NCBI GenBank assembly: GCA_964532285.1
Contig: CAZHHB010000005.1
Coordinates: 1-60,060, forward strand
Source of the DNA: an uncultured Candidatus Saccharibacteria bacterium
GTDB lineage: Bacteria; Patescibacteriota; Minisyncoccia; Phycocordibacterales; PALSA-1337
Length of the DNA: 60,060 nucleotides
Direction of reading: 5' to 3'
The translations under genes were made by a program, and so were the position numbers. Below the pieces are notes generated by a model. It saw only the letters and a program-made list of their open reading frames with translations, had not been told where the DNA came from and did no database searches. This document shows, piece after piece, positions 2,482 to 57,802 of this stretch (position 1 is its first letter; each line of letters begins with the position of its first letter).

Positions 2482-2633
2482 AGTAAGTCGGGCAAGGTGT
2501 TATTTCTCGCGACGGCGAGTATGCGATGGGTGCGTCAGTCTATGCTTCTCTGAGGCAGACTATGGCTCGCCAACCAATAACTCGGAAGACTAACACGCAG
2601 CTGCGCGAGAAATAACACCTTGCCCGACTTACT
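2482..2633. repeat. Perfect 30-bp inverted repeat flanking a 92-nt structured spacer (nested palindrome A)
   Basis: Left arm agtaagtcgggcaaggtgttatttctcgcg (2482-2511) is the exact reverse complement of 2604-2633. It lies between convergent genes. Confidence 0.9.
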
Positions 2634-3882: not shown

Positions 3883-4048
3883 GTCCGGTAAATAAGTTCT
3901 CGAGACAGCCGAGGACATGTCTGAGCGCAGTAGAAATTGCTTGGTAAAAGGCGAATGTCGTTGGAATTATTCATAATTCCTGAGCCTTTTACCTAGCAAT
4001 TTCACGGAGCGAGTACCGCAGGCTGGCGAGAGGATTTATTTACCGGAC
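3883..4048. repeat. Nested palindrome element B: 114-nt core (3909-4022) inside the locus-specific IR gtccggtaaataa/ttatttaccggac
   Basis: The core is the reverse complement of 54283-54396 with a single mismatch. It has an internal 20-bp stem and an 8-bp stem. Confidence 0.9.
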
Positions 4049-12007: not shown

Positions 12008-13888
12008 ATGGACGAGAATAGAATTACATATTTCGCAGAGACTGATGCCCGCAATAAGCGAGTGAAATTTGGCATCAAAGCAAAAGATAGAACCCGACAT
12101 GTCTATGTGATCGGGAAGACCGGTATGGGCAAATCAACCATGCTGGAGAACATGGCTGTGCAGGACATCATGAACGGCGAAGGGATGGCTTTCATTGATC
12201 CTCACGGCAAGACTGCAGATCTATTACTTGAATATGTTCCCAAGGAACGCATACGCGATGTTATATACATTGCGCCATTTGATGTTGAACATCCTATTTC
12301 ATTCAATGTTCTGGAAAGTGTAGACAGAGACAAACGTCATCTAGTTTCATCAGGCTTGATGAGTACCTTCAAAAAGATCTGGGAAGATGCTTGGTCAGCG
12401 CGTATGGAATATATTCTGACAAACACTCTTTTGGCTCTTCTGGAATATCCTGGGTCAACTCTCTTGGGTGTCAACAGGATGCTTTCAGACAAAGAGTATA
12501 GGAAGGATGTTGTTGCGCATATTCAGGATCCATCAGTCAAAGCTTTTTGGGTCAAAGAATTTGCGAATTATACCGAGCGTCAAGCGGCCGAGGCTGTGCC
12601 TGCTATTCAGAACAAGGTCGGTCAATTCACCGCCAATCCACTCATCAGGAATATGATTGGTCAGCCAAATTCCTCTTTTGATTTTCGTAAAGCTATGGAT
12701 GAACGCAAGATTATCATTATCAACCTTTCAAAAGGGAAGATCGGCGATGAGAATATGAAACTTCTAGGAGGACTCCTCGTGACGAAGATTTATCTCGCTG
12801 CTATGTCACGAGCTGATGTGCCAGATAGGATCATGAAAGTCCTGCCAAATTTCTATCTGTTTGTAGACGAATTCCAAAATTTCGCGAACGCTTCGTTCGC
12901 AGACATACTCTCAGAAGCCAGAAAATATAAACTCAATCTAACCATCGCCCACCAATACATAGAACAGATGGATGAGATCGTTCGTCCGGCAGTATTTGGC
13001 AACGTCGGCACAATGATCGCTTTCCGTGTGGGGGCAACGGACGCCGAGGAATTGGAAAAAGAATTTGCCCCTGTCTTTGTTTTGGAAGATTTGGTCAATC
13101 TGGGCTTTGCTCAAATATATCTGAAATTGATGATTGATGGTTTGTCATCTTCGCCATTTTCTGCGACGACATTGCCGCCTATTGCTCATCCAGACACATC
13201 TTATGTCAAAGAGATTATAGATGTCTCGCGAGAACAATATGCCAAACCAAGAGCTGAGGTTGAAGTGGATATTATCAAATTCCATGAACCGACAGTGAAG
13301 AAGGTAGAAGTGATTAAGGGGCAGGTTGCGGAAGTCCCCCAGAGACGTACGCCGTCGTCGCTTGCTAGCGACGCGGCTCGTTCTCAGCCGCCTGCGCGGC
13401 TTCCGAAAGCCGTCTCTGAAGGACTTCCGCAACCTGCCCCAACCTCAACTTCTTCCGTTCCCGTACCACCGAAAATTCAATCGGCAACAACAAACCCAGT
13501 AACACCTTCAAAGGCCTCACCGGTGCCAGTTCAACCTCCACCGACACCTTCCAAGCCCATATCAGCACCTGTACAAACCAAGCCTATAATTTCCAATACA
13601 AATAATGTTTCTATTCCACTAGCGACACTTTCACCTAGACCCCCTTCACAGAGGACTGATCACAAGGTCCAGTCATCAGGAAATGTTAACGATTTACGAA
13701 ATGCTTTGCAGGCAGTCTTGAAGAAATCCGCACCAACATCTACAACACCTTCATTACCATCGTCTACTCCGGGTGTTTCGAATACTACCAAATTCACCCA
13801 AAAGTCTTCCGGAACAGCGTCATCTGATAGTAAACCCGCGAATGAAGTACCTAGAGATGTTCTTGAGAAGGTATTGAAAGTTGACTGA
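12008..13888 (+). CDS. TraD/TraG/VirD4-family P-loop ATPase (T4SS coupling-protein-like) with a Pro/Ser/Thr-rich C-terminal tail
   Basis: 626 aa. Walker A VIGKTGMGKST, Walker B FYLFVDEFQNF, LTIAHQY. The last ~190 aa are low-complexity P/S/T-rich. Confidence 0.7.
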   Translation: MDENRITYFAETDARNKRVKFGIKAKDRTRHVYVIGKTGMGKSTMLENMAVQDIMNGEGMAFIDPHGKTADLLLEYVPKERIRDVIYIAPFDVEHPISFNVLESVDRDKRHLVSSGLMSTFKKIWEDAWSARMEYILTNTLLALLEYPGSTLLGVNRMLSDKEYRKDVVAHIQDPSVKAFWVKEFANYTERQAAEAVPAIQNKVGQFTANPLIRNMIGQPNSSFDFRKAMDERKIIIINLSKGKIGDENMKLLGGLLVTKIYLAAMSRADVPDRIMKVLPNFYLFVDEFQNFANASFADILSEARKYKLNLTIAHQYIEQMDEIVRPAVFGNVGTMIAFRVGATDAEELEKEFAPVFVLEDLVNLGFAQIYLKLMIDGLSSSPFSATTLPPIAHPDTSYVKEIIDVSREQYAKPRAEVEVDIIKFHEPTVKKVEVIKGQVAEVPQRRTPSSLASDAARSQPPARLPKAVSEGLPQPAPTSTSSVPVPPKIQSATTNPVTPSKASPVPVQPPPTPSKPISAPVQTKPIISNTNNVSIPLATLSPRPPSQRTDHKVQSSGNVNDLRNALQAVLKKSAPTSTTPSLPSSTPGVSNTTKFTQKSSGTASSDSKPANEVPRDVLEKVLKVD

Positions 13889-20571: not shown

Positions 20572-20640
20572 AAGTTCGGTGAATGTGTGTCCCCCTCGGA
20601 ACGGAACATGTTCCTCGGAAGACACACATTCACCGAACTT
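20572..20640. repeat. Perfect 20-bp inverted repeat around a 29-nt palindromic centre (nested palindrome G)
   Basis: aagttcggtgaatgtgtgtc (20572-20591) pairs with gacacacattcaccgaactt (20621-20640). The centre contains ggaacatgttcc and two cctcgg motifs. Confidence 0.9.
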
Positions 20641-31429: not shown

Positions 31430-32284
31430 ATGAAAAATATCCTGAAGAAAACCCTGCCACCTTTTATTTGGAATAATGCCAGAGATACTTATTATGGCTT
31501 TTCTCATATCCTATGTAGGATTGGTCCGCAGACGAAAACTCGCAATTATTGTGGATTCAGATTGTATTACAATTGCGGCAATTCCATAATTGACAGACTG
31601 AAGTTTGAACCCGTCTTCGAAAAAGAGATGTGTGAGATGATCGTCTTTGATTTGAATAAAAGTAAGACACCAAAGATGTTAGATATCGGTGCGAATATCG
31701 GTTTTATCAGCCTTTATGTTGTTTCAGAAGTTTCTGCAATCAAGATTTATGCTTTTGAGCCGGGGTTGAAACAGGCGGGGTATTTTAAGAAAACTATAGA
31801 AGCCAATGCCTTGAGCGAGCGTGTGGTCTTGAATACTTTTGCCCTCTCAGATTCAAATGGCACCCAGACCTTCTATAGTCATCCTAGACGCGATATGTCG
31901 AAAGATGGTCTAAAAGATACAGGAAGGGGAGAAAGGACGGTTGTAACAGAGGTAAAGACCATGACGTTGGATTCTTGGTGGAAAGGGGTGGGTATGCCGA
32001 ATATTGATGTTGTGAAGATTGATACAGAGGGGGCGGAGTTATTGATCTTGCGTTGTGCAAAGGAATTCCTGGCGAAAGTGAAACCGATTATTTATCTGGA
32101 GATAGCGCCGAGTAATCTGAAAGCATACCCGTACAAGGTCTCAGATATTTTGAAATATTTAGGCGAGGCTGGTTACAGATTGGTAACGTTGTCAGGTGAA
32201 TTGGTTACAGCAGATAATTTAAATGAATTGTTGGTTGTTAATGAGACTTTCCGTGCCATTTCAGATGGTCAGGTCGCAAAGTGA
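31430..32284 (+). CDS. FkbM-family methyltransferase
   Basis: MLDIGANIGFISLY, AFEP, VVKIDTEGAE. Confidence 0.75.
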   Translation: MKNILKKTLPPFIWNNARDTYYGFSHILCRIGPQTKTRNYCGFRLYYNCGNSIIDRLKFEPVFEKEMCEMIVFDLNKSKTPKMLDIGANIGFISLYVVSEVSAIKIYAFEPGLKQAGYFKKTIEANALSERVVLNTFALSDSNGTQTFYSHPRRDMSKDGLKDTGRGERTVVTEVKTMTLDSWWKGVGMPNIDVVKIDTEGAELLILRCAKEFLAKVKPIIYLEIAPSNLKAYPYKVSDILKYLGEAGYRLVTLSGELVTADNLNELLVVNETFRAISDGQVAK

Positions 32285-32432
32285 TTTTTATGAGACCTGC
32301 GGGACTCGCTATCGTTAAATTGCAAGGTTTTTGTGCTCATGGGCATGTAAGGTTCCGAGCACAAAAACCTAGCAATTTATACTCTGCTCAGACAGGTCCT
32401 CGGTCTCATAAAAATCACCTTGCGACCTGACC
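32267..32432. repeat. Nested palindrome element C: core 32296-32403 inside a 31-bp IR (1 mismatch) that includes the last 5 codons and stop of both flanking genes
   Basis: ggtcaggtcgcaaagtgatttttatgagacc pairs with ggtctcataaaaatcaccttgcgacctgacc. The core termini cctgcgg.actcgct / ctgctcagacaggtcctcgg are shared with elements B and D. Confidence 0.9.
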
Positions 32433-33128
32433 TCTTCGAGTAAAGATAGAATCCTCAAATAGTATTTCACCAGTTTTTGGATGCCTTTTATTTTGCAAAC
32501 CTCCGTGATATTCAAATCCTTTTTCCGTCAAAAAATTGTAAATATTACTGAATAAAGGTTGGTTCTCATACAGCGCACGGAATGAAGTTTCAGCCAAGAC
32601 GATTGAAACATGAGGTAATAGATTTACAGCTCCACGCAAAACTTTCTCTTCATAACCCTGAACATCTAGTTTCAATAGTATATTCCTCTTAATATTTGAG
32701 GCTTGAAGTATGGAATCTAGAGTCTTCACAATAATTTTTTCGTCTGTTGAATCTTTTGTAAAAGGGAAGGCATCTTCCAAAAGCTCCGTGTTGGATAACA
32801 TGGAAGAGCTGGGTGCGTATGAATTTTTATGGATTACAGAAGTACCGGCAATATCGCCAAGGCCGATATTGTAAGAAGTGAAGTTGCGATCATTCTTCCT
32901 AGAGATATTCAATTTAGCGAAACATTCCTTCATGGGCTCAAAAGAGTAAATATGAGCATCAGGCAAAACGGCACGGATCTCGGAGGCAAATTGCCCGACA
33001 TTGGCCCCAACATCTATGACTGTATTTACCTCATAGTTTTTAAAGAAACCAAAAGGGTTTATCTTGTGGCGATAACGGATGATGTCTACGCCGATCTTTT
33101 GTAGTAATGACTTAATTGTTTTTTTCAT
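32415..33128 (-). CDS. FkbM-family methyltransferase
   Basis: VIDVGANVGQFASE, SFEP, LLKLDVQGYEE. Confidence 0.75.
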   Translation of the reverse strand: MKKTIKSLLQKIGVDIIRYRHKINPFGFFKNYEVNTVIDVGANVGQFASEIRAVLPDAHIYSFEPMKECFAKLNISRKNDRNFTSYNIGLGDIAGTSVIHKNSYAPSSSMLSNTELLEDAFPFTKDSTDEKIIVKTLDSILQASNIKRNILLKLDVQGYEEKVLRGAVNLLPHVSIVLAETSFRALYENQPLFSNIYNFLTEKGFEYHGGLQNKRHPKTGEILFEDSIFTRRGQVAR

Positions 33129-35852: not shown

Positions 35853-36017
35853 GAACGGAAGTATACACCATTGTCTGTATTTGTGAATAATAAAAAGCCC
35901 TATCAAGAATTTGACAGAGTTTGTGTGGTCGTGTTAACCAAATATTTTCGTAGGGTGCAACATCCCATTCCGAACCCACGATCGGCCCTGCTCGTACAAC
36001 GGAACACCTCGCAGGGC

Positions 36018-36143
36018 CGTCTCTTCTCGCGCTGGTGTCATCAATATGCGGAGTTAATCTTCAACAGCGCTCCGAAAGGGGTGTCGTCATGGGATGTTAC
36101 ACCCTACTGCAATCATTATATACTCGCTCAGACAGGTCCTCGG
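36018..36143. repeat. Partial or degenerate copy of the nested-palindrome core (element E)
   Basis: cctactgcaatcattatatactcgctcagacaggtcctcgg resembles the element C 3' end cctagcaatttatactctgctcagacaggtcctcgg. No flanking IR was found. Confidence 0.6.
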
Positions 36144-37084: not shown

Positions 37085-37099
37085 ATGTACATTATAGTA

Positions 37100-37141
37100 C
37101 CACAAGGTCCGACCTAGGAGTTCCTAGGTCGGACCTTGTGG
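37100..37141. repeat. 42-nt near-perfect palindrome made of two short palindromic units
   Basis: ccacaaggtccgacctagga-gt-tcctaggtcggaccttgtgg (20-bp arms). It lies between the divergent GDPD and IMPase-family promoters. Confidence 0.9.
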
Positions 37142-37143
37142 TA

Positions 37144-48136: not shown

Positions 48137-48242
48137 AGACATTTATGGAGAGTGCCCACACGGGTACTCATGACGCTATTATAGCACACAATACTCCCAT
48201 CGCAAAATAATTATCCACATGTTACAATATTCTAGGATTGTA

Positions 48243-48316
48243 CCAAATGATGGCGACGGCTGTACTCATAAAATTTAGACATTTTATTTGGAGCTCACAC
48301 CCGTCGCCATCATTGG
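48243..48316. repeat. ~16-bp inverted repeat with an inner 7-bp hairpin (nested palindrome H)
   Basis: ccaaatgatggcgacgg ... ccgtcgccatcattgg, with inner ataaaat/attttat. It lies upstream of murB. Confidence 0.8.
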
Positions 48317-48356
48317 GCGCAAATTGAGCGTGAACTTAGGAGATAATTTTACTTAC

Positions 48357-49361
48357 ATGAATATCCAAGAAAACATCACGCTTGCTCAATACACTACATT
48401 CAAGATTGGTGGACCAGCCAAGTTTTTCTGTATATGTAAGAGCGAAGGTGATCTTGTAGAAATTGTGAATTTCGCAAAAGGGAAGAAGTTGCCAATTTTT
48501 ATATTGGGTGGTGGATCCAATATCCTAATCTCTGATAAAGGTTATAAGGGATTAGTGATAAAGATGGAAATTGGGGGCACGGACTTGTCGGTAGTATCCG
48601 CTGGCGCCGGCGTAATATGGGATGATTTTGTTGCGGAAATAGTTGCAAATGGTCTGTATGGTCTGGAAAATCTCTCCGCTATACCTGGAACAGTCGGTGC
48701 GGCACCGGTGCAGAATATCGGTGCTTATGGGATGGATGTCTCGCGTGCGGTACAGTCGGTGCGAGCTCTGGATACAAAGTCTATGAAATTTATTGAATTA
48801 TCCAATGCCGACTGTAAATTTGATTATCGGGATAGTGTCTTTAAGCATGAGAAGGGTCGTTATGTTATAACGCGAGTTGACTTCAAACTTTCCAAGAAGG
48901 GTAAGGTGAATATTGAGTACAAGGATTTGAAGGAGTATTTCCAAGATCCGATCTCGGTACCAAGATCGGATCTAGTTGGAGTTCGCGAAGCTGTGGTCAA
49001 TATTCGCGCAGCGAAATTGCCGGATTGGAAAAAGTGGGGGACAGCGGGATCGTATTTCAAGAATCCGATCATCTCAAAGAAAAAGTTTGAAAGCTTGAAG
49101 AAAAAGTATTCCGAGTTGCCAGGATTCCCAGAATCCAATGGAGATATCAAGATTTCTCTGGGTTGGGTTCTGGACAAAGTATGTAATTTCAAGGGTCTGA
49201 GCATGGGCAGGGTGAAAATATATGAAAAACAGGCTTTGGTTATCGTAGCTTCGGCTGGAGCAACAGCAGAAGAAGTCATGAAATTGGCGCAAGAATTGAT
49301 GCGCGAAGTCAAGAAAAAAACAGGTATTATGATAGAAGGTGAGGTGGAATGGGTGAATTAA
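48357..49361 (+). CDS. murB: UDP-N-acetylenolpyruvoylglucosamine reductase
   Basis: LAQYTTFKIGGPAKFF, LGGGSNIL, GSYFKNP. Start taken at MNIQEN. Confidence 0.85.
   Translation: MNIQENITLAQYTTFKIGGPAKFFCICKSEGDLVEIVNFAKGKKLPIFILGGGSNILISDKGYKGLVIKMEIGGTDLSVVSAGAGVIWDDFVAEIVANGLYGLENLSAIPGTVGAAPVQNIGAYGMDVSRAVQSVRALDTKSMKFIELSNADCKFDYRDSVFKHEKGRYVITRVDFKLSKKGKVNIEYKDLKEYFQDPISVPRSDLVGVREAVVNIRAAKLPDWKKWGTAGSYFKNPIISKKKFESLKKKYSELPGFPESNGDIKISLGWVLDKVCNFKGLSMGRVKIYEKQALVIVASAGATAEEVMKLAQELMREVKKKTGIMIEGEVEWVN
48941..48975. repeat. Inverted pair of short palindromic units inside murB
   Basis: ccaagatccgatctcgg-ta-ccaagatcggatctag, translated as QDPISVPRSDLV. Confidence 0.9.
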
Positions 49362-49388: not shown

Positions 49389-51959
49389 ATGGCATTTTTC
49401 AGCAAAATATTCAGTTCATCCAAGACGAGCAATCCAAAGAAGTTTGAGCCGATTGTGGTGGAGATAAATAAACTGGAAAACAAAATCCAGGCTCTTTCTG
49501 ATGCAGAACTTCGAGCGAAGACAGCAGAGTTTAAGAGTAAACTGAGTACTTCTACCTCTAGGTCGGACCTAGAGGTGTTGATGAATGAAATCCTCCCTGA
49601 AGCTTTCGCTGTAGTTCGCGAAGCCTCTCGCCGTACTCTCGGTCAGCGTCATTTTGATGTTCAACTTATCGGGGGGATGATCTTGAATTCAGGATCAATC
49701 GCCGAGATGAGGACTGGTGAAGGTAAAACTTTGGTGGCAACACTGCCAGCTTATTTGAATGCACTTACCGGTAATGGTGTACATATTGTCACGGTCAACG
49801 ATTATCTATCACGACGCGATGCTGTGTGGATGGGACAGATCTACGATTTTCTCGGACTTACAGTCGGAGTGATCAACCATGAATCATCTTTTATATATGA
49901 TGCGGAACATAAAAGTAAAGAAACAGTAGAAAGTGATGGTGAAGACAAACTAGACAAAGAACGCGATGATCTGGGTGCCTTCAAAGTCGTTCATGAATTC
50001 TTAAGACCAGTTACTAGACACGAAGCCTACATGGCCGATATCACTTACGGCACGAACAATGAATTCGGTTTTGATTACCTCCGAGACAATCTAGAGTATA
50101 GTCCAGACCGTCTGCGTCAGAGGGAATTCAACTATGCCATAGTAGACGAGATAGACTCTATTTTGATCGATGAAGCGCGTACGCCACTCATCATCTCCGC
50201 GCCGACTCGTGACGCCGAAAGTACTTACAAACAGTTTGCTGCGCTCGTAGGTTCATTCAAAGAAATAGAAGACTATATAGTAGAAGAAAAACACAAAAGT
50301 ATATCTCTGACGCAGGATGGTATAACTAAAGCTGAAAAGGCTCTGGGCATAGAGAATATCTATACAGACAAGGGCATCAAGTCGGTTCATCATCTCGAGA
50401 CGGCCATCAAAGCCCGAGCCTTGTATCACAAAGACAAAGAATATGTAGTAAAAGAAAATCAGATTGTAATAGTAGATGAATTCACTGGGAGATTGCAGCC
50501 TGGCCGTAGATGGTCAGATGGTCTGCATCAAGCCATTGAAGCCAAAGAAGGTGTGAGTATTCAGCAAGAATCTAGAACTTATGCTTCCATTACATTCCAA
50601 AACTTCTTCAGAATGTACCCGAAGCTTTCCGGTATGACTGGTACGGCCGTGACTTCATCTGAGGAATTCCACAAAGTCTATGGCCTGGAAGTTTATAGTG
50701 TACCGACCAATGTTCCAACGGTGAGGAAAGATCAAAATGATCAGATATTCAGAACAGAGGTTGGTAAATTCAAAGCTATTGCAAGAAAGGTCAAAGAATT
50801 GCACAGCAAAGGTCAGCCGGTTCTGATCGGCACGGTCTCTATTGAGAGGAATGAAGTCTTGTCACAATTCTTGAAAGCAGAAGGTATCCCGCATGAGATA
50901 TTAAATGCAAAAAATCACGAGAGAGAAGGAGAGATCATCGCTCAGGCTGGTAGGGTTGGTGCGGTTACTATCGCCACCAACATGGCGGGTCGCGGTGTGG
51001 ATATCAAACTTGGCGGCAATCCAAATACTCCAGAATCACACGATGAAGTCAATAAAGCTGGGGGACTTTTTGTCCTCGGCACTGAACGCCATGAAGCTCG
51101 TCGTATAGACGACCAACTACGAGGTCGTTCTGGCCGTCAGGGTGATCCGGGTGAGACACAGTTCTTTGTCTCTCTAGAAGATACTTTGATGCGTGTTTTT
51201 GCTTCGGATACTTTGAAGTCAATGATGGTTAGGTTGAATGTGCCAGAAGATGAAGCTATAGAGCATAAGTTTATTTCCAAAGCTTTGGAATCTGCACAAG
51301 AGAAGATTGAAGGTTTCAACTTCGATTCCCGCAAACATGTTTTGGAATTTGATGATGTCATAAATCATCAGCGCGGTAGTATTTACGGTAGACGCAGAAA
51401 ACTTTTGCTTGGGACGGTAGAGGATGTGGAAGAGGAGTTCAGGATTATCATAGAAGCTGCCGCTTTTGAAACCGATATATTAAAGGTCGTAGAAAATAAA
51501 ATAAATGAATTTGGTCGTGAGTCATTCCTCAATGCTGTTAGAGTGATTCTCCTGCAGACAATTGATATGTATTGGGTGGAACATCTGGAGGTTATGGATT
51601 ATACGCGTTCCAGCGTCAATCTGCGCGCTTACGGTCAACGAGATCCTTTGGTTGAATACAAAAAGGAGGGGCTGAGGCTTTTCAAAGAGATGCAGGGTGT
51701 TATGAGTGCGCAGGTGATCAAAATCATTCCACATATAGTCCCGATGGTAAACGGGGAACCTGTTTCCAAGAAGATTGCAGGTGACGCTGCTGATTTGAGG
51801 GAAGTTCATGAAAATGCTCAGATTATCGGTGCCGGTGATGGTTCCGCGAATAATTCAAAGTCAGTCAGTGATTCCAAGTCCGTTGGTCGCAACGATCCAT
51901 GTTGGTGTGGTAGTGGGAAGAAGTATAAGAAGTGTCATGGGCAGTCAAAGATCGTGTAA
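49389..51959 (+). CDS. secA: Preprotein translocase ATPase SecA
   Basis: AEMRTGEGKTLVATLPAYLNAL, IVDEIDSILIDEARTPLIIS, C-terminal CWCGSGKKYKKCHG. Confidence 0.95.
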   Translation: MAFFSKIFSSSKTSNPKKFEPIVVEINKLENKIQALSDAELRAKTAEFKSKLSTSTSRSDLEVLMNEILPEAFAVVREASRRTLGQRHFDVQLIGGMILNSGSIAEMRTGEGKTLVATLPAYLNALTGNGVHIVTVNDYLSRRDAVWMGQIYDFLGLTVGVINHESSFIYDAEHKSKETVESDGEDKLDKERDDLGAFKVVHEFLRPVTRHEAYMADITYGTNNEFGFDYLRDNLEYSPDRLRQREFNYAIVDEIDSILIDEARTPLIISAPTRDAESTYKQFAALVGSFKEIEDYIVEEKHKSISLTQDGITKAEKALGIENIYTDKGIKSVHHLETAIKARALYHKDKEYVVKENQIVIVDEFTGRLQPGRRWSDGLHQAIEAKEGVSIQQESRTYASITFQNFFRMYPKLSGMTGTAVTSSEEFHKVYGLEVYSVPTNVPTVRKDQNDQIFRTEVGKFKAIARKVKELHSKGQPVLIGTVSIERNEVLSQFLKAEGIPHEILNAKNHEREGEIIAQAGRVGAVTIATNMAGRGVDIKLGGNPNTPESHDEVNKAGGLFVLGTERHEARRIDDQLRGRSGRQGDPGETQFFVSLEDTLMRVFASDTLKSMMVRLNVPEDEAIEHKFISKALESAQEKIEGFNFDSRKHVLEFDDVINHQRGSIYGRRRKLLLGTVEDVEEEFRIIIEAAAFETDILKVVENKINEFGRESFLNAVRVILLQTIDMYWVEHLEVMDYTRSSVNLRAYGQRDPLVEYKKEGLRLFKEMQGVMSAQVIKIIPHIVPMVNGEPVSKKIAGDAADLREVHENAQIIGAGDGSANNSKSVSDSKSVGRNDPCWCGSGKKYKKCHGQSKIV
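49554..49576. repeat. 23-nt perfect palindrome (short palindromic unit) inside secA
   Basis: acctctaggtc-g-gacctagaggt, translated as TSRSDLEV. Confidence 0.9.
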
Positions 51960-52113
51960 CCCCTCACATTGTTTCCTCACTCACTCGCACTCCACTCATC
52001 ACATATCGGAATTTTCACAAATGATGTCTTCCAAGGCTTCAGCCATCATTTGGAAAATTCAACGATATGTTCTTCGCGGATTATGCTCGCTCGTGGATAA
52101 ACAATGTGAGGGG
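51960..52113. repeat. Nested palindrome element F: 15-bp outer IR and 17-bp inner hairpin
   Basis: Outer IR cccctcacattgttt / aaacaatgtgagggg; inner hairpin gaattttcacaaatgatg / catcatttggaaaattc. The 5' motif cctcactcactcgcactcc resembles cctgcggtactcgctcc of element D. Confidence 0.85.
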
Positions 52114-52163
52114 GTACACGATCTCAGATTCACAAAACTCTGTAGATGTGGTAGAGTAAACTT

Positions 52164-54253: not shown

Positions 54254-54424
54254 AGAGCCCAACAACTAACTCGCAAAGCTCACCTGCGGTACTCGCTCCG
54301 TGAAATTGCTAGGTAAAAGGCTCAGGAATTATGAATAATTCCAACGACATTCGCCTTTTACCAAGCAATTTCTACTGCGCTCAAACATGTCCTCGGTGAG
54401 CCTTGCGATTAGTTGTTGGGCTCT
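54254..54424. repeat. Nested palindrome element D: 114-nt core (54283-54396) inside a ~31-bp locus-specific IR
   Basis: The core matches the reverse complement of 3909-4022 at 113/114 positions. Arms are agagcccaacaactaactcgcaaagctcacc / ggtgagccttgcgattagttgttgggctct. Confidence 0.9.
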
Positions 54425-56533: not shown

Positions 56534-57802
56534 ATGAAAGATATCTTTATTTTTGAAGGTAAAAAATACATCTCGGCTAGGCGAGCATCCGAAATCTCGG
56601 ACTATTCTTCTGATTACATTGGCCAACTTTGCCGCTCTGGAAAGCTTGATTGTCGCATGGAGGGAAGATCGTGGTTTGTAACAGAAGAGTCTCTCAATCT
56701 ACACAAGACCAATGTTTTGGAAGATGAAGTTTACAGGAACCGTATCGAAAATCTTCGTGGGAAGAAACCGAAAGACACAACAGAAGAGAAAGTTAAAATT
56801 TCCGAAAATAAAAAATCCGAGTCTGAATCAGTAGAACAGACTACTCCATTCATCTCTACAAAACGGGCATCCGAAATCTCGAACTATTCTCCAGATTACA
56901 TCGGTCAACTTTGTCGTTCCGAAAAGCTTGATTGTCGTATGGTGGGACGGTCATGGTTTGTAACAGAAGAATCTCTCAATCTATACAAGGTCAATGTTTT
57001 GCACGATGAAGTTTACAGGAACCGCATCGAAAATCTTCGCGGGAAAAAATCAAAAGATATAACAGGAGAGGAAATCGGCGCTCAGGTTCCCGATCCCCAA
57101 CCTTCTCTCTCGGAACAATTCATCTCATCTGAAATGAGATCTTTCTTGGCAAGCAAGATGACATATGAACACGCTGACGATCCTCTGCTTCCAGCATTGA
57201 ATAAATATGCAGACAAGACAACAGAGGGGGCTTTGTCTGATTCGACAGAGATTGTGGGGGGGGCGATGATTCCGATTAAAACTCCCTACACCAATCTTGC
57301 TCGCTCCATCATTTTGAAAAGAGCATTGAGACCCGCTGTGATGATAGCCATGTTCCTGGTTGTCTTCGGCGGAACGACGATTGTATTCAATAAGATCAAA
57401 AATAGTAGCAATATATCGGTGGCCAAAATCTCCGAACTCAATGCGACTATTTTAGACGCTTTCAAGTCAACCAGTTCTTTTTTGCAGAGAGAGTATGATG
57501 GCTTGCTGGCTCTATTCAAATACAGAAGTGAGTTGGCTTTGAACACAACCGATGATGGCGCAGAAATATCGGACGTCGAAACCCCTACAAATAATCCTTC
57601 TCAAGGAATAGCGATAGTGCCTTCGACGGGACTTGCCGCGGATGATGAGGCGGCAAAACAGAAGATTCAAGATTCTTTCTCTGATCAGATAGAAGTTCAT
57701 CCTGACAATAGCGGTACATCAGGTATCATCACCCCTGTCTTCCGCACCACGAAGGGTAATGATTTCGTATACGTTCTCGTTCCGATCAATGAGCAAAAAT
57801 AA
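56534..57802 (+). CDS. Membrane-anchored protein with two tandem excisionase-like HTH modules
   Basis: 422 aa. The module ISxxRASEISxYSxDYIGQLCRSxKLDCRMxGRSWFVTEESLNL occurs twice, followed by a TM helix (AVMIAMFLVVFGGTTIVF) and a C-terminal extracytoplasmic part. Confidence 0.6.
   Translation: MKDIFIFEGKKYISARRASEISDYSSDYIGQLCRSGKLDCRMEGRSWFVTEESLNLHKTNVLEDEVYRNRIENLRGKKPKDTTEEKVKISENKKSESESVEQTTPFISTKRASEISNYSPDYIGQLCRSEKLDCRMVGRSWFVTEESLNLYKVNVLHDEVYRNRIENLRGKKSKDITGEEIGAQVPDPQPSLSEQFISSEMRSFLASKMTYEHADDPLLPALNKYADKTTEGALSDSTEIVGGAMIPIKTPYTNLARSIILKRALRPAVMIAMFLVVFGGTTIVFNKIKNSSNISVAKISELNATILDAFKSTSSFLQREYDGLLALFKYRSELALNTTDDGAEISDVETPTNNPSQGIAIVPSTGLAADDEAAKQKIQDSFSDQIEVHPDNSGTSGIITPVFRTTKGNDFVYVLVPINEQK
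56569..57070 (+). repeat. Intragenic tandem duplication: two ~220-bp units offset by 282 bp (94 codons)
   Basis: 56569-56788 and 56851-57070 align base for base with scattered substitutions. Confidence 0.9.

Follow-up and report, generated by a model that had tools for sequence, protein, structure and literature searches.

The DNA considered here is a stretch of 60,060 nt (the window: contig CAZHHB010000005.1, positions 1 to 60,060) from an uncultured Candidatus Saccharibacteria bacterium, in which two convergent genes, FkbM1 and FkbM2, meet tail to tail at a 166-bp inverted-repeat feature that we call copy C (32267-32432). The products of both genes match Methyltransf_21, the Pfam family of FkbM methyltransferases, and the end of each gene lies within one arm of the repeat (Table 1). 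The arms, each of 31 nt, are complementary at 30 positions and the complementarity stops at the arm boundary; none of 100 shuffled sequences gave a comparable match, and the arm sequence GGTCAGGTCGCAARGTGATTTTTATGAGA recurs nowhere else in the window. FkbM1 ends in ...ISDGQVAK (GGT CAG GTC GCA AAG TGA) and FkbM2 in ...TRRGQVAR (GGT CAG GTC GCA AGG TGA; peptide tails are written here up to the stop codon), in agreement with a first-pass annotation of this DNA, which had described 31-bp arms with one mismatch and a common ending ggt cag gtc gca aRg tga. The shared non-coding tail that follows each stop was given there as 14 nt and is in fact 13 nt (TTTTTATGAGACC), its last CC/GG being already part of the boxes of the core that lies between the arms. 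The sequence agrees letter for letter over 7996 nt with an independent Logan assembly of the organism, which breaks within the element at 32324, so copy C is unlikely to be an assembly artefact.

The core is bipartite, with two conserved boxes, M1 (consensus CCTGCGGnACTCGC) and M2 (consensus GCTCArACAkGTCCTCGG), on either side of a variable apical hairpin, P2. The complement of M2 in copy C, CCGAGGACCUGUCUGAGC, and that of M1, GCGAGUCCCGCAGG, form respectively the 5′ and 3′ boxes of what we call the GA-sense strand, which reads CCGAGGACMUGUYUGAGC...GCGAGUUCCGCAGG; the FkbM2 transcript, as the gene is placed, would enter the element in this sense. The P2 stem of copy C is paired at 22 of 23 positions, and the whole 166 nt folds as a single rod (z = -14) on either strand, whether as RNA or as DNA. 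A terminator scan of 31900-32800 gave no terminator-like sites, and a T5 run lies inside the arm and not 3′ of the stem.

Two further copies of the element, B and D, are present in the window. Their cores are identical at 113 of 114 positions and are each 68-69% identical to the core of C, while the arms of B, D and C are mutually unrelated in sequence. Copy B, whose 26-nt arms are paired at 21 positions, lies between the convergent Mpl and LysW-like zinc ribbon genes, and its Mpl-side arm carries the last two codons and the stop of Mpl; the arms of copy D are both non-coding and lie between the stops of the convergent Obg and GatB genes. The first-pass annotation had noted that C shares its core termini with B and D, that the distal part of the P2 stem differs in sequence between C and B/D with its pairing kept, which it read as covariation, and that a mismatch persists at nearly the same place. 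All of this holds: the stem base AAATTGC.AGG is common to C, B, D and the related copy L119 described below, beyond it the sequence differs and still pairs, and the A.A mismatch of C is offset by one position from that of B and D.

The FkbM gene pair is syntenic in related genomes, where the two genes belong to different orthologue groups. At FkbM junctions that carry no element the genes overlap by 4 nt (L115 and L116/L117; TTAA, CTAG) or are 5 nt apart (the P0002 contig), and the proteins end in ...GLKNASVN and ...FRAVSN, in ...GLYKTD and ...FRAAPLP, or in ...GLKISK, but never in GQVA[KR]. The first-pass annotation, which suggested this comparison of orthologue C-termini, regarded the shared ending as a discrete event rather than an old inverted gene duplication, and the empty sites and differing tails of the relatives, together with the abrupt end of identity in C, bear it out. 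The sites of other elements are likewise empty elsewhere. In L241, a close relative whose type IV secretion system (T4SS) coupling protein is ~93% identical over the first 430 residues, the Mpl/LysW junction that holds copy B in the window is a 26-nt gap with no palindrome; the junction of the PALP-enzyme and MurD-like genes, filled in the window by another element (I1), is a gap of 27 nt in L241 and of 12 nt in a second relative, L240, again with no palindrome. No long inverted-repeat elements were found in 45 kb from four relatives.

At locus L119, where the FkbM2 orthologue is 70% identical, an element has inserted independently into this FkbM junction. It is oriented oppositely with respect to the genes, has a core of the B/D type (84% identical), and its arms are complementary at 26 of 26 positions. 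One of these arms, GCG GTT CCT TTG TCA TAA, is the tail of the locus's own gene (AVPLS), homologous to the tails AAPLP, ASPL and ASPLR; the other is a perfect inverted copy, 12 nt past the stop of the neighbouring gene. The Mpl tail at copy B, IVKLVR, is typical of its family in length and pattern, and when the core and the other arm are subtracted the inferred ancestral gap is 25 nt, compared with 26 nt in L241; the Mpl-side arm is likewise native. Near-identical cores with unrelated arms in B and D, the empty sites and the native tail in L119 together lead us to regard the arms as inverted copies of one flank. The arms are locus-specific inverted duplications of 24-31 nt that lie outside the mobile unit and are not transposon ends; what each insertion contributes is the core together with 24-31 nt of one flank in inverted form.

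On balance we think that FkbM1 and FkbM2 owe their identical ends to a hairpin element that inserted at their junction and duplicated, in inverted form, about 30 bases from the end of one of them. With the same modest confidence we take the 166-bp feature to be one copy of a mobile element, small, non-coding and able to form a hairpin, that multiplied within this Patescibacteria-like genome. The direction of copying in C was judged from the lengths of orthologue tails and by analogy with L119 and copy B. After ...SIFxR, FkbM2 has six residues (RGQVAR) and its closest orthologues seven to nine, with the same R/K-G start (RGLKISK, RGLYKTD); after ...TFRA, FkbM1 has eight (ISDGQVAK) and its closest orthologues three or four. 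The segment FRAISD of FkbM1 equals the orthologue tail FRAVSN in length (other orthologue tails are FRAAPLP and FRAVPLS), and the native part of FkbM1 probably ended near ...FRAISD. These lengths make the minus-strand gene, FkbM2, the likely donor, in which case the right arm (the FkbM2 tail plus 11 nt) would be native. The left arm is probably an inverted copy made at insertion that provided FkbM1 with five codons and a new stop; FkbM1 would have lost its own stop and would now read in frame into the copied end of FkbM2, ending in GQVAK.

The mobile unit would be a hairpin with the two conserved boxes at its open end and a variable stem-loop at its apex. At each landing site 24-31 nt of one flank would reappear inverted across the core, so that the hairpin is lengthened by a locus-specific stem; in C, with landing in the tail-to-tail FkbM junction, the bases copied would be the minus-strand gene's last five codons and stop and the 11 nt that follow. 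As the mechanism we infer fold-back (hairpin-primed) copying. The 3′ end of the hairpin unit would be paired next to its 5′ end, and once the 5′ end had been joined to a target strand, extension of the 3′ end would copy that flank backwards for ~25-30 nt to give the inverted arm, after which synthesis would switch back to the original template. The hairpin may afterwards be kept by selection on one single strand, either RNA or single-stranded DNA. The narrow range of arm length suggests a ruler, or selection for a stem of ~2.5-3 turns. Fold-back priming at inverted repeats is presented in PMC10622511 as an established route to inverted duplications, and snap-back synthesis has been reported for bacterial group II intron-like reverse transcriptases acting in repair (PMC12337344). 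We found in the literature no description of an inverted one-flank duplication as the insertion signature of prokaryotic mobile elements.

The family extends well beyond this genome. A scan of GTDB, with one genome per species (596 Gb) and the 18-mer GCTCARACAKGTCCTCGG (M2) as query, gave at least 115 matches; since the query fixes M2, the conservation of that box is overstated. Most of the matches are due to chance, as expected for an 18-mer in 596 Gb, but at least 47 of them have M1 (with up to three mismatches) within 160 nt, where by our own arithmetic ~1.5 would be expected by chance. Taking as members those loci with M1 and M2 within 160 nt, one closed hairpin between them and a second helix enclosing them, the family includes C, B, D, L119 and at least 44 loci in GTDB genomes. 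The members are of two types, which are circular permutations of each other: type 1 has M1, a closed hairpin and M2, with pairing flanks, and type 2 has M2, a closed hairpin and M1, again with pairing flanks. Among the matches listed, the hosts include Lachnospiraceae, Oscillospiraceae, Eubacterium, Coriobacteriia, Polyangia, Myxococcales, Anaeromyxobacteraceae, Patescibacteria, Omnitrophota, Planctomycetia, Spirochaetales, Eisenbacteria and others; the phyla in which the core occurs include Bacillota and Myxococcota. The variable stems follow the G+C content of the host. All canonical members found are in metagenome-assembled genomes (MAGs), and copies often break contigs. A related structure is present in finished genomes of cultured strains: the megaplasmid of Ralstonia solanacearum PSI07 (L118, 1424-1560) and 70 other Ralstonia replicons carry a ~34-bp hairpin with the tip AAACTCGC-TGC-GCTCAGACAGG, and this tip (AACTCGC-TGC-GCTCAGACAGG) corresponds to the middle of the core and lacks the CCTGCGG/GTCCTCGG portion.

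Two MAGs show special arrangements. The Lachnospiraceae MAG RGIG8364 has at least ten copies (L001, L020, L037, L046, L047, L066, L075, L101, L108 and L111) of a ~270-nt repeat with a minimal 35-nt core at its centre and a second, degenerate inverted core adjoining; several are at contig ends, and compensatory changes occur in two stem segments. In the MAG 'bacterium 8_bin.22' (L038, L039 and L056) there is a type-2 variant with an insertion in M1 (CCTGCGGGAGATAACTGCGCG), and at L038 two inverted copies flank 520 nt of non-coding DNA between convergent genes.

Other searches were negative. No family in Rfam 15 matches the window or 20 of the family loci, either at gathering thresholds or in E-value mode, the latter giving only generic hairpin matches to microRNA models. 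M2 has no match in viral contigs (IMG/VR), E. coli genomes gave no match either, and a metagenome scan with ACTCGCTN{4,6}AAATTGC returned 120 loci, all attributable to chance, with M1 and M2 together in none. When the open reading frames (ORFs) surrounding the 44 loci were clustered, the only genes in common were ABC transporters. Searches of the literature by sequence string returned nothing relevant, only PCR primers and eukaryotic 5.8S rRNA, which shares CCUGUCUGAGCG. This stretch of the GA-sense core (for example 32386-32397, minus strand) exactly matches the region at the 3′ end of that rRNA, down to the C/U variation between human and yeast. The corresponding 5.8S stretch is Watson-Crick paired with 28S rRNA in the ribosome, and for this reason we judge the likeness to be a coincidence.

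The mismatches within the stems point to one strand. When each left arm is aligned to the complement of the right arm and transition-type mismatches are counted, 21 would be G.U pairs on the GA-sense strand and five on the other (one-sided binomial ~0.001, by our own arithmetic); the closed hairpins give five and two respectively, and the wobble-type mismatches thus favour the GA-sense strand. On that strand the core shows a helix, a 6-nt bulge, tandem G.A/A.G pairs and a G-C/C-G helix. The core-adjoining helix, P1, has a covariation score of 0.415, compared with 0.142 in shuffles (reached in none of 500) and 0.15-0.18 in slid controls, and all four types of Watson-Crick pair are represented at the first four positions of the arm, where one to four of 21 sequences are unpaired per position. 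This covariation shows that the stem is real; it cannot tell selection apart from a mechanism that copies one arm from the other, for such copying could by itself make the arms covary, with no need of selection. The minimal copies are closed by GC-GNA-GC (GCGAAGC and GCGCAGC, for example), a class of unusually stable mini-hairpins in DNA. The core could be the recognition site of a mobilizing enzyme, or an RNA module. Likenesses seen by eye to other RNAs were set aside: the hammerhead core CUGANGA/GAAA is absent, helix 8 of the signal recognition particle RNA shares CAGGUCC..GGAA with the core but lacks AGCA and pairs differently, and a resemblance to the tRNA D-arm was dropped.

In all, the window holds at least seven long inverted-repeat elements. 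Elements I1, I3 and I6 are built like C, with arms of 26-31 nt and cores that are diverged or different; global alignment of C, I1 and I3 gave no convincing common core. I1 fills the gap between the stops of the MurD-like and PALP-enzyme genes. I3 lies within a coding sequence, that of a VirD4/TraG-like T4SS coupling protein (ORF 12008..13888), and is in frame with it; the left arm of I3, like the arms of C, also reads G Q V A (GGG CAG GTT GCG), and its right arm (...GLPQPAP, which aligns with LPKP of the L241 orthologue) may be the native one. I6 lies between two same-strand genes and is antisense to them in GA terms; its core starts with CCTCACTCACTCGC and ends with GCTCGCTCGTGG, which may be diverged forms of M1 and M2. 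The segment 35950-36143, between two minus-strand genes, is probably a decayed or rearranged copy, in which a 36-nt inverted repeat encloses 86 nt with a degenerate M1-like CGGAACACCTCGC.

Table 1. Coordinates of the two FkbM genes, the parts of copy C and the other inverted-repeat elements in the window
Feature	Coordinates	Strand	Description
FkbM1	31430..32284	+	284 aa; Pfam Methyltransf_21; last five codons and stop (32267-32284) in left arm
FkbM2	32415..33128	-	237 aa; Pfam Methyltransf_21; GQVAR and stop within right arm
Left arm of C	32267..32297		31 nt; inverted-repeat partner of right arm
Box M1	32296..32309	+	CCTGCGGGACTCGC; conserved, almost invariant in 47 copies from many phyla
Apical hairpin P2	32316..32379		Variable; stems 32316-32338 / 32357-32379, loop 18 nt
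Box M2	32386..32403	+	GCTCAGACAGGTCCTCGG; conserved
Right arm of C	32402..32432		31 nt; last five codons and stop of FkbM2 plus 11-13 nt of 3′ untranslated region
Copy B	3883..4048	+	Core 3909-4022 (M1 to M2 on minus strand, GA-sense on plus); arms 3883-3908 / 4023-4048
Copy D	54254..54424	-	Core 54283-54396; arms ~29 nt, one mismatch and one indel
Degenerate or partial copy	36126..36143	+	Exact M2 box, ACTC-GCTCAGACAGGTCCTCGG; beside imperfect 36-nt inverted repeat at 35950-36107
I1	2482-2633		Perfect 30-nt arms; 92-nt core with only faint M1/M2-like stretches
I3	13318-13440		123 nt (41 codons); 30-nt arms (28/30), 63-nt core
I6	51949-52124		26-nt arms (25/26); left arm holds last three codons and stop of SecA

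Several other features of the window are recorded here. A core-less hairpin at 20572-20640, with arms of 31 nt (27/31) around a 7-nt loop, includes two occurrences of CCGAGGAAC, and a perfect core-less palindrome of 22+2+22 (46 nt) occupies 37098-37143 in a divergent intergenic region; these could be remnants, targets or unrelated. An 85-nt hairpin (48238-48322) with 26-nt arms (22/26) lies just upstream of, or overlaps, the annotated start of murB (48288..49361). A 422-aa ORF at 56534-57802, with a weak match to the excisionase-type domain HTH_17, is the one gene in the window possibly linked to mobile DNA. Outward-facing GAGACC...GGTCTC sequences bracket the core in C (32291-32297 / 32402-32408) and in L119 (733-739 / 849-855), GAGACG...CGTCTC brackets the core of I3 (13342-13347 / 13411-13416), and GAGAC also adjoins the core in B. 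The sequences GAGACC and CGTCTC are recognized by type IIS enzymes (BsaI and BsmBI), but we reject an origin of these sites in cloning or adapters in view of the host-matched G+C, the accumulated mismatches and the agreement of two assemblies. They could reflect a target preference, carried bases or chance.

A number of observations sit uneasily with the view that the shared gene ends were made by a landing hairpin. In the flanking proteins, identity to the nearest relatives is no higher than 56-70%, and the pre-insertion sequence is unreadable at the nucleotide level. The donor gene in C is identified from tail lengths only. A precise insertion there would imply an ancestral gene overlap of 29 nt, unlike the relatives, and a small deletion, probably of a few bases, must therefore be assumed. 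In L119 it is the M2-side arm that is native and in copy B the M1-side arm, so that a single simple polarity fails; a rule placing the native arm 5′ of the core on the GA-sense strand in every case fits L119 and probably C and is contradicted by copy B. The arms of C weakly resemble those of I1 (20 of 20000 shuffles were as good) and of I3 (GGnCAGGTnGC), similarities that are not significant once corrected for the number of comparisons, and GAGAC adjoins the core of each of C, L119, B and I3; together these could point to an arm that is partly carried or to a preferred target. The long stems of the elements in Lachnospiraceae and Polyangia are kept between copies, with compensatory changes, and there the whole hairpin is the repeated unit. 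No mobilizing enzyme was seen in the window or in the 8-kb flanks of the 44 loci, whole genomes not having been searched, and the fold-back step is pure inference.

Selection on a transcript offers a different account of the long stems. The elements could be functional structured RNAs in 3′ untranslated regions, serving as a stabilizer or processing site, a kink-turn (k-turn)-like protein-binding module or an unrecognized self-cleaving ribozyme, a rather unlikely proposal in our judgement and one compatible with mobility; we find it equally doubtful that selection maintains the long stems and perhaps built them. The bipartite core between two variable helices in both circular permutations, the patchy, multi-copy spread across phyla, the bias of G.U pairs to one strand with covarying stems, the tandem G.A pairs beside a bulge and the mini-hairpins that end the minimal copies are what such RNAs might show, but nothing in Rfam 15, which includes all ribozyme classes, matches them, the element-free close relatives show them to be dispensable, the diverged copy I6 is antisense to its flanking genes, and point mutation under selection cannot build perfect stems of 26-34 bp. 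The arms would be older than the element if cores inserted into the apices of pre-existing palindromes or bidirectional terminator hairpins. C, B, D and many copies elsewhere lie between convergent genes with arms abutting stop codons, the window has the core-less hairpins at 37098-37143 and 20572-20640, and repetitive extragenic palindromic (REP) elements are known insertion-sequence targets (PMC3184786); nevertheless, the orthologous junctions are without a palindrome, their gaps of -4 to 27 nt are too short for two arms, the arms of L119 and C include coding sequence of the flanking genes, and the arms have neither the G+C-rich stem nor the T-run of a terminator, and we consider this course of events improbable.

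It is less probable still that C is a classical miniature transposable element of the inverted-repeat type (MITE), whose 31-bp terminal inverted repeats (TIRs) travel with the element so that both gene tails are element-derived. MITEs, as TIR-flanked cores, do form long hairpins and are able to lengthen genes at their 3′ ends (PMC3184786), and the weak arm similarity of C, I1 and I3, the GAGAC beside the core in C, L119, B and I3 and the stems conserved between copies in Lachnospiraceae and Polyangia could be read in this way. Against it, no direct target-site duplication is present at the outer boundaries of C, B, D, I1 and L119, the cores of B and D are 99% identical with unrelated arms, the arm of C is unique in the window, an arm of L119 is a native gene tail, and the arm similarities fail correction for multiple comparisons. 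We give hardly any credence to an old inverted duplication of an FkbM gene or to gene conversion between paralogues: both genes belong to Methyltransf_21, but identity ends exactly at the arm boundary, the sequences upstream are unalignable and form separate orthologue groups syntenic in relatives, the arm includes 13 non-coding nucleotides, and the same architecture occurs at unrelated loci. An artefact of assembly or library preparation (a hairpin adapter or chimeric read) is just as hard to credit. It would be in keeping with the confinement of canonical members to MAGs and with contigs that break at the elements, but the inverted copy extends for only ~30 nt before unrelated native sequence follows, the stems match the host in G+C, the subfamilies are lineage-specific, mismatches have accumulated with a strand bias, two assemblers gave identical sequence and a related tip is present in finished Ralstonia replicons.

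The hairpin element that we favour shares features with several known systems. Like MITEs (PMC3184786) it is small, non-coding, multi-copy and mostly intergenic, forms long hairpins and is associated with in-frame fusion or 3′ extension of genes; repeats that extend the 3′ ends of genes or sit in frame within them are already known (PMC3184786). MITEs, however, have family-specific TIRs and direct target duplications, whereas here the stems vary, one arm is native flank and there is no direct duplication, nor was a parent insertion sequence or transposase seen in the window or in the 8-kb flanks of the 44 loci. REP elements and REPINs, mobilized by REP-associated tyrosine transposases (RAYTs), are also extragenic hairpins that favour the spaces between convergent genes, but their stems are conserved within a genome and a RAYT gene is found alongside, while here the outer stem is locus-specific and it is the internal-loop sequence that is conserved; Pfam scans of the window and the copy flanks found no RAYT/Y1 transposase domain, the genome outside the window not having been searched. 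Fold-back inverted duplications and quasi-palindrome template switching, as PMC10622511 presents them, likewise place an inverted copy of adjacent sequence beside a hairpin-former, although the known cases are repair accidents of variable size and here the copies are of 24-31 nt and regularly accompany a conserved element. Integron attC sites too are imperfect hairpins at the 3′ ends of genes, often overlapping the stop, with variable terminal structures and one folded strand, but R″/R′ (RYYYAAC...GTTRRRY) is absent here, there is no integrase or cassette array, and the genes are convergent housekeeping and polysaccharide genes. The G+C-rich stem-loop with a T-run on each strand of an intrinsic bidirectional terminator is not found in C. 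The sister element I3, in frame inside a coding gene, recalls the Rickettsia palindromic elements and BRE, which are of an unrelated sequence family, and the canonical copies here are at gene ends.

Among RNAs, permuted ribozymes such as the hammerhead and twister similarly have a core split over two strands between variable helices, occur in permutations and in many copies, and are patchily distributed among phyla, but none of the hammerhead, twister, twister-sister, pistol, hatchet, hairpin or hepatitis delta virus (HDV)-like classes gave an Rfam match, and there is no hammerhead core of the form CUGANGA...GAAA. By eye, the GA-sense strand resembles a k-turn, with, in order, the helix GGAC/G(U)UCC, a 5′-strand bulge, tandem G.A/A.G pairs and a G-C/C-G helix; the bulge of 6 nt (MUGUYU) is conserved, however, in place of the three variable nucleotides of k-turns. 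What is unusual is, first, the bipartite core, conserved across phyla and circularly permutable, and second, the inverted duplication of one flank. Quite tentatively, we propose a cross-phylum family of hairpins with a permutable, k-turn-like core that spreads by hairpin-primed copying and leaves an inverted duplication of 24-31 nt of one target flank; its core may be recognized by an enzyme of wide distribution, or may be a novel RNA module that is catalytic or binds protein.

If this is correct, a sequence of ~32 nt in two parts would be conserved from Patescibacteria to Myxococcota and Bacillota outside the families of Rfam, which calls for a shared enzyme or RNA function. The insertion signature, an inverted duplication of one flank, would be missed by methods of MITE and transposon detection, which seek TIRs and direct duplications, and since the elements break short-read contigs they may affect the assembly of MAGs. 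Small selfish hairpins would also be rewriting the ends of protein-coding genes, transplanting the last codons and stop of one gene, inverted, to its convergent neighbour, so that the C-termini of convergent genes would be rewritten as a by-product of the spread of the element.

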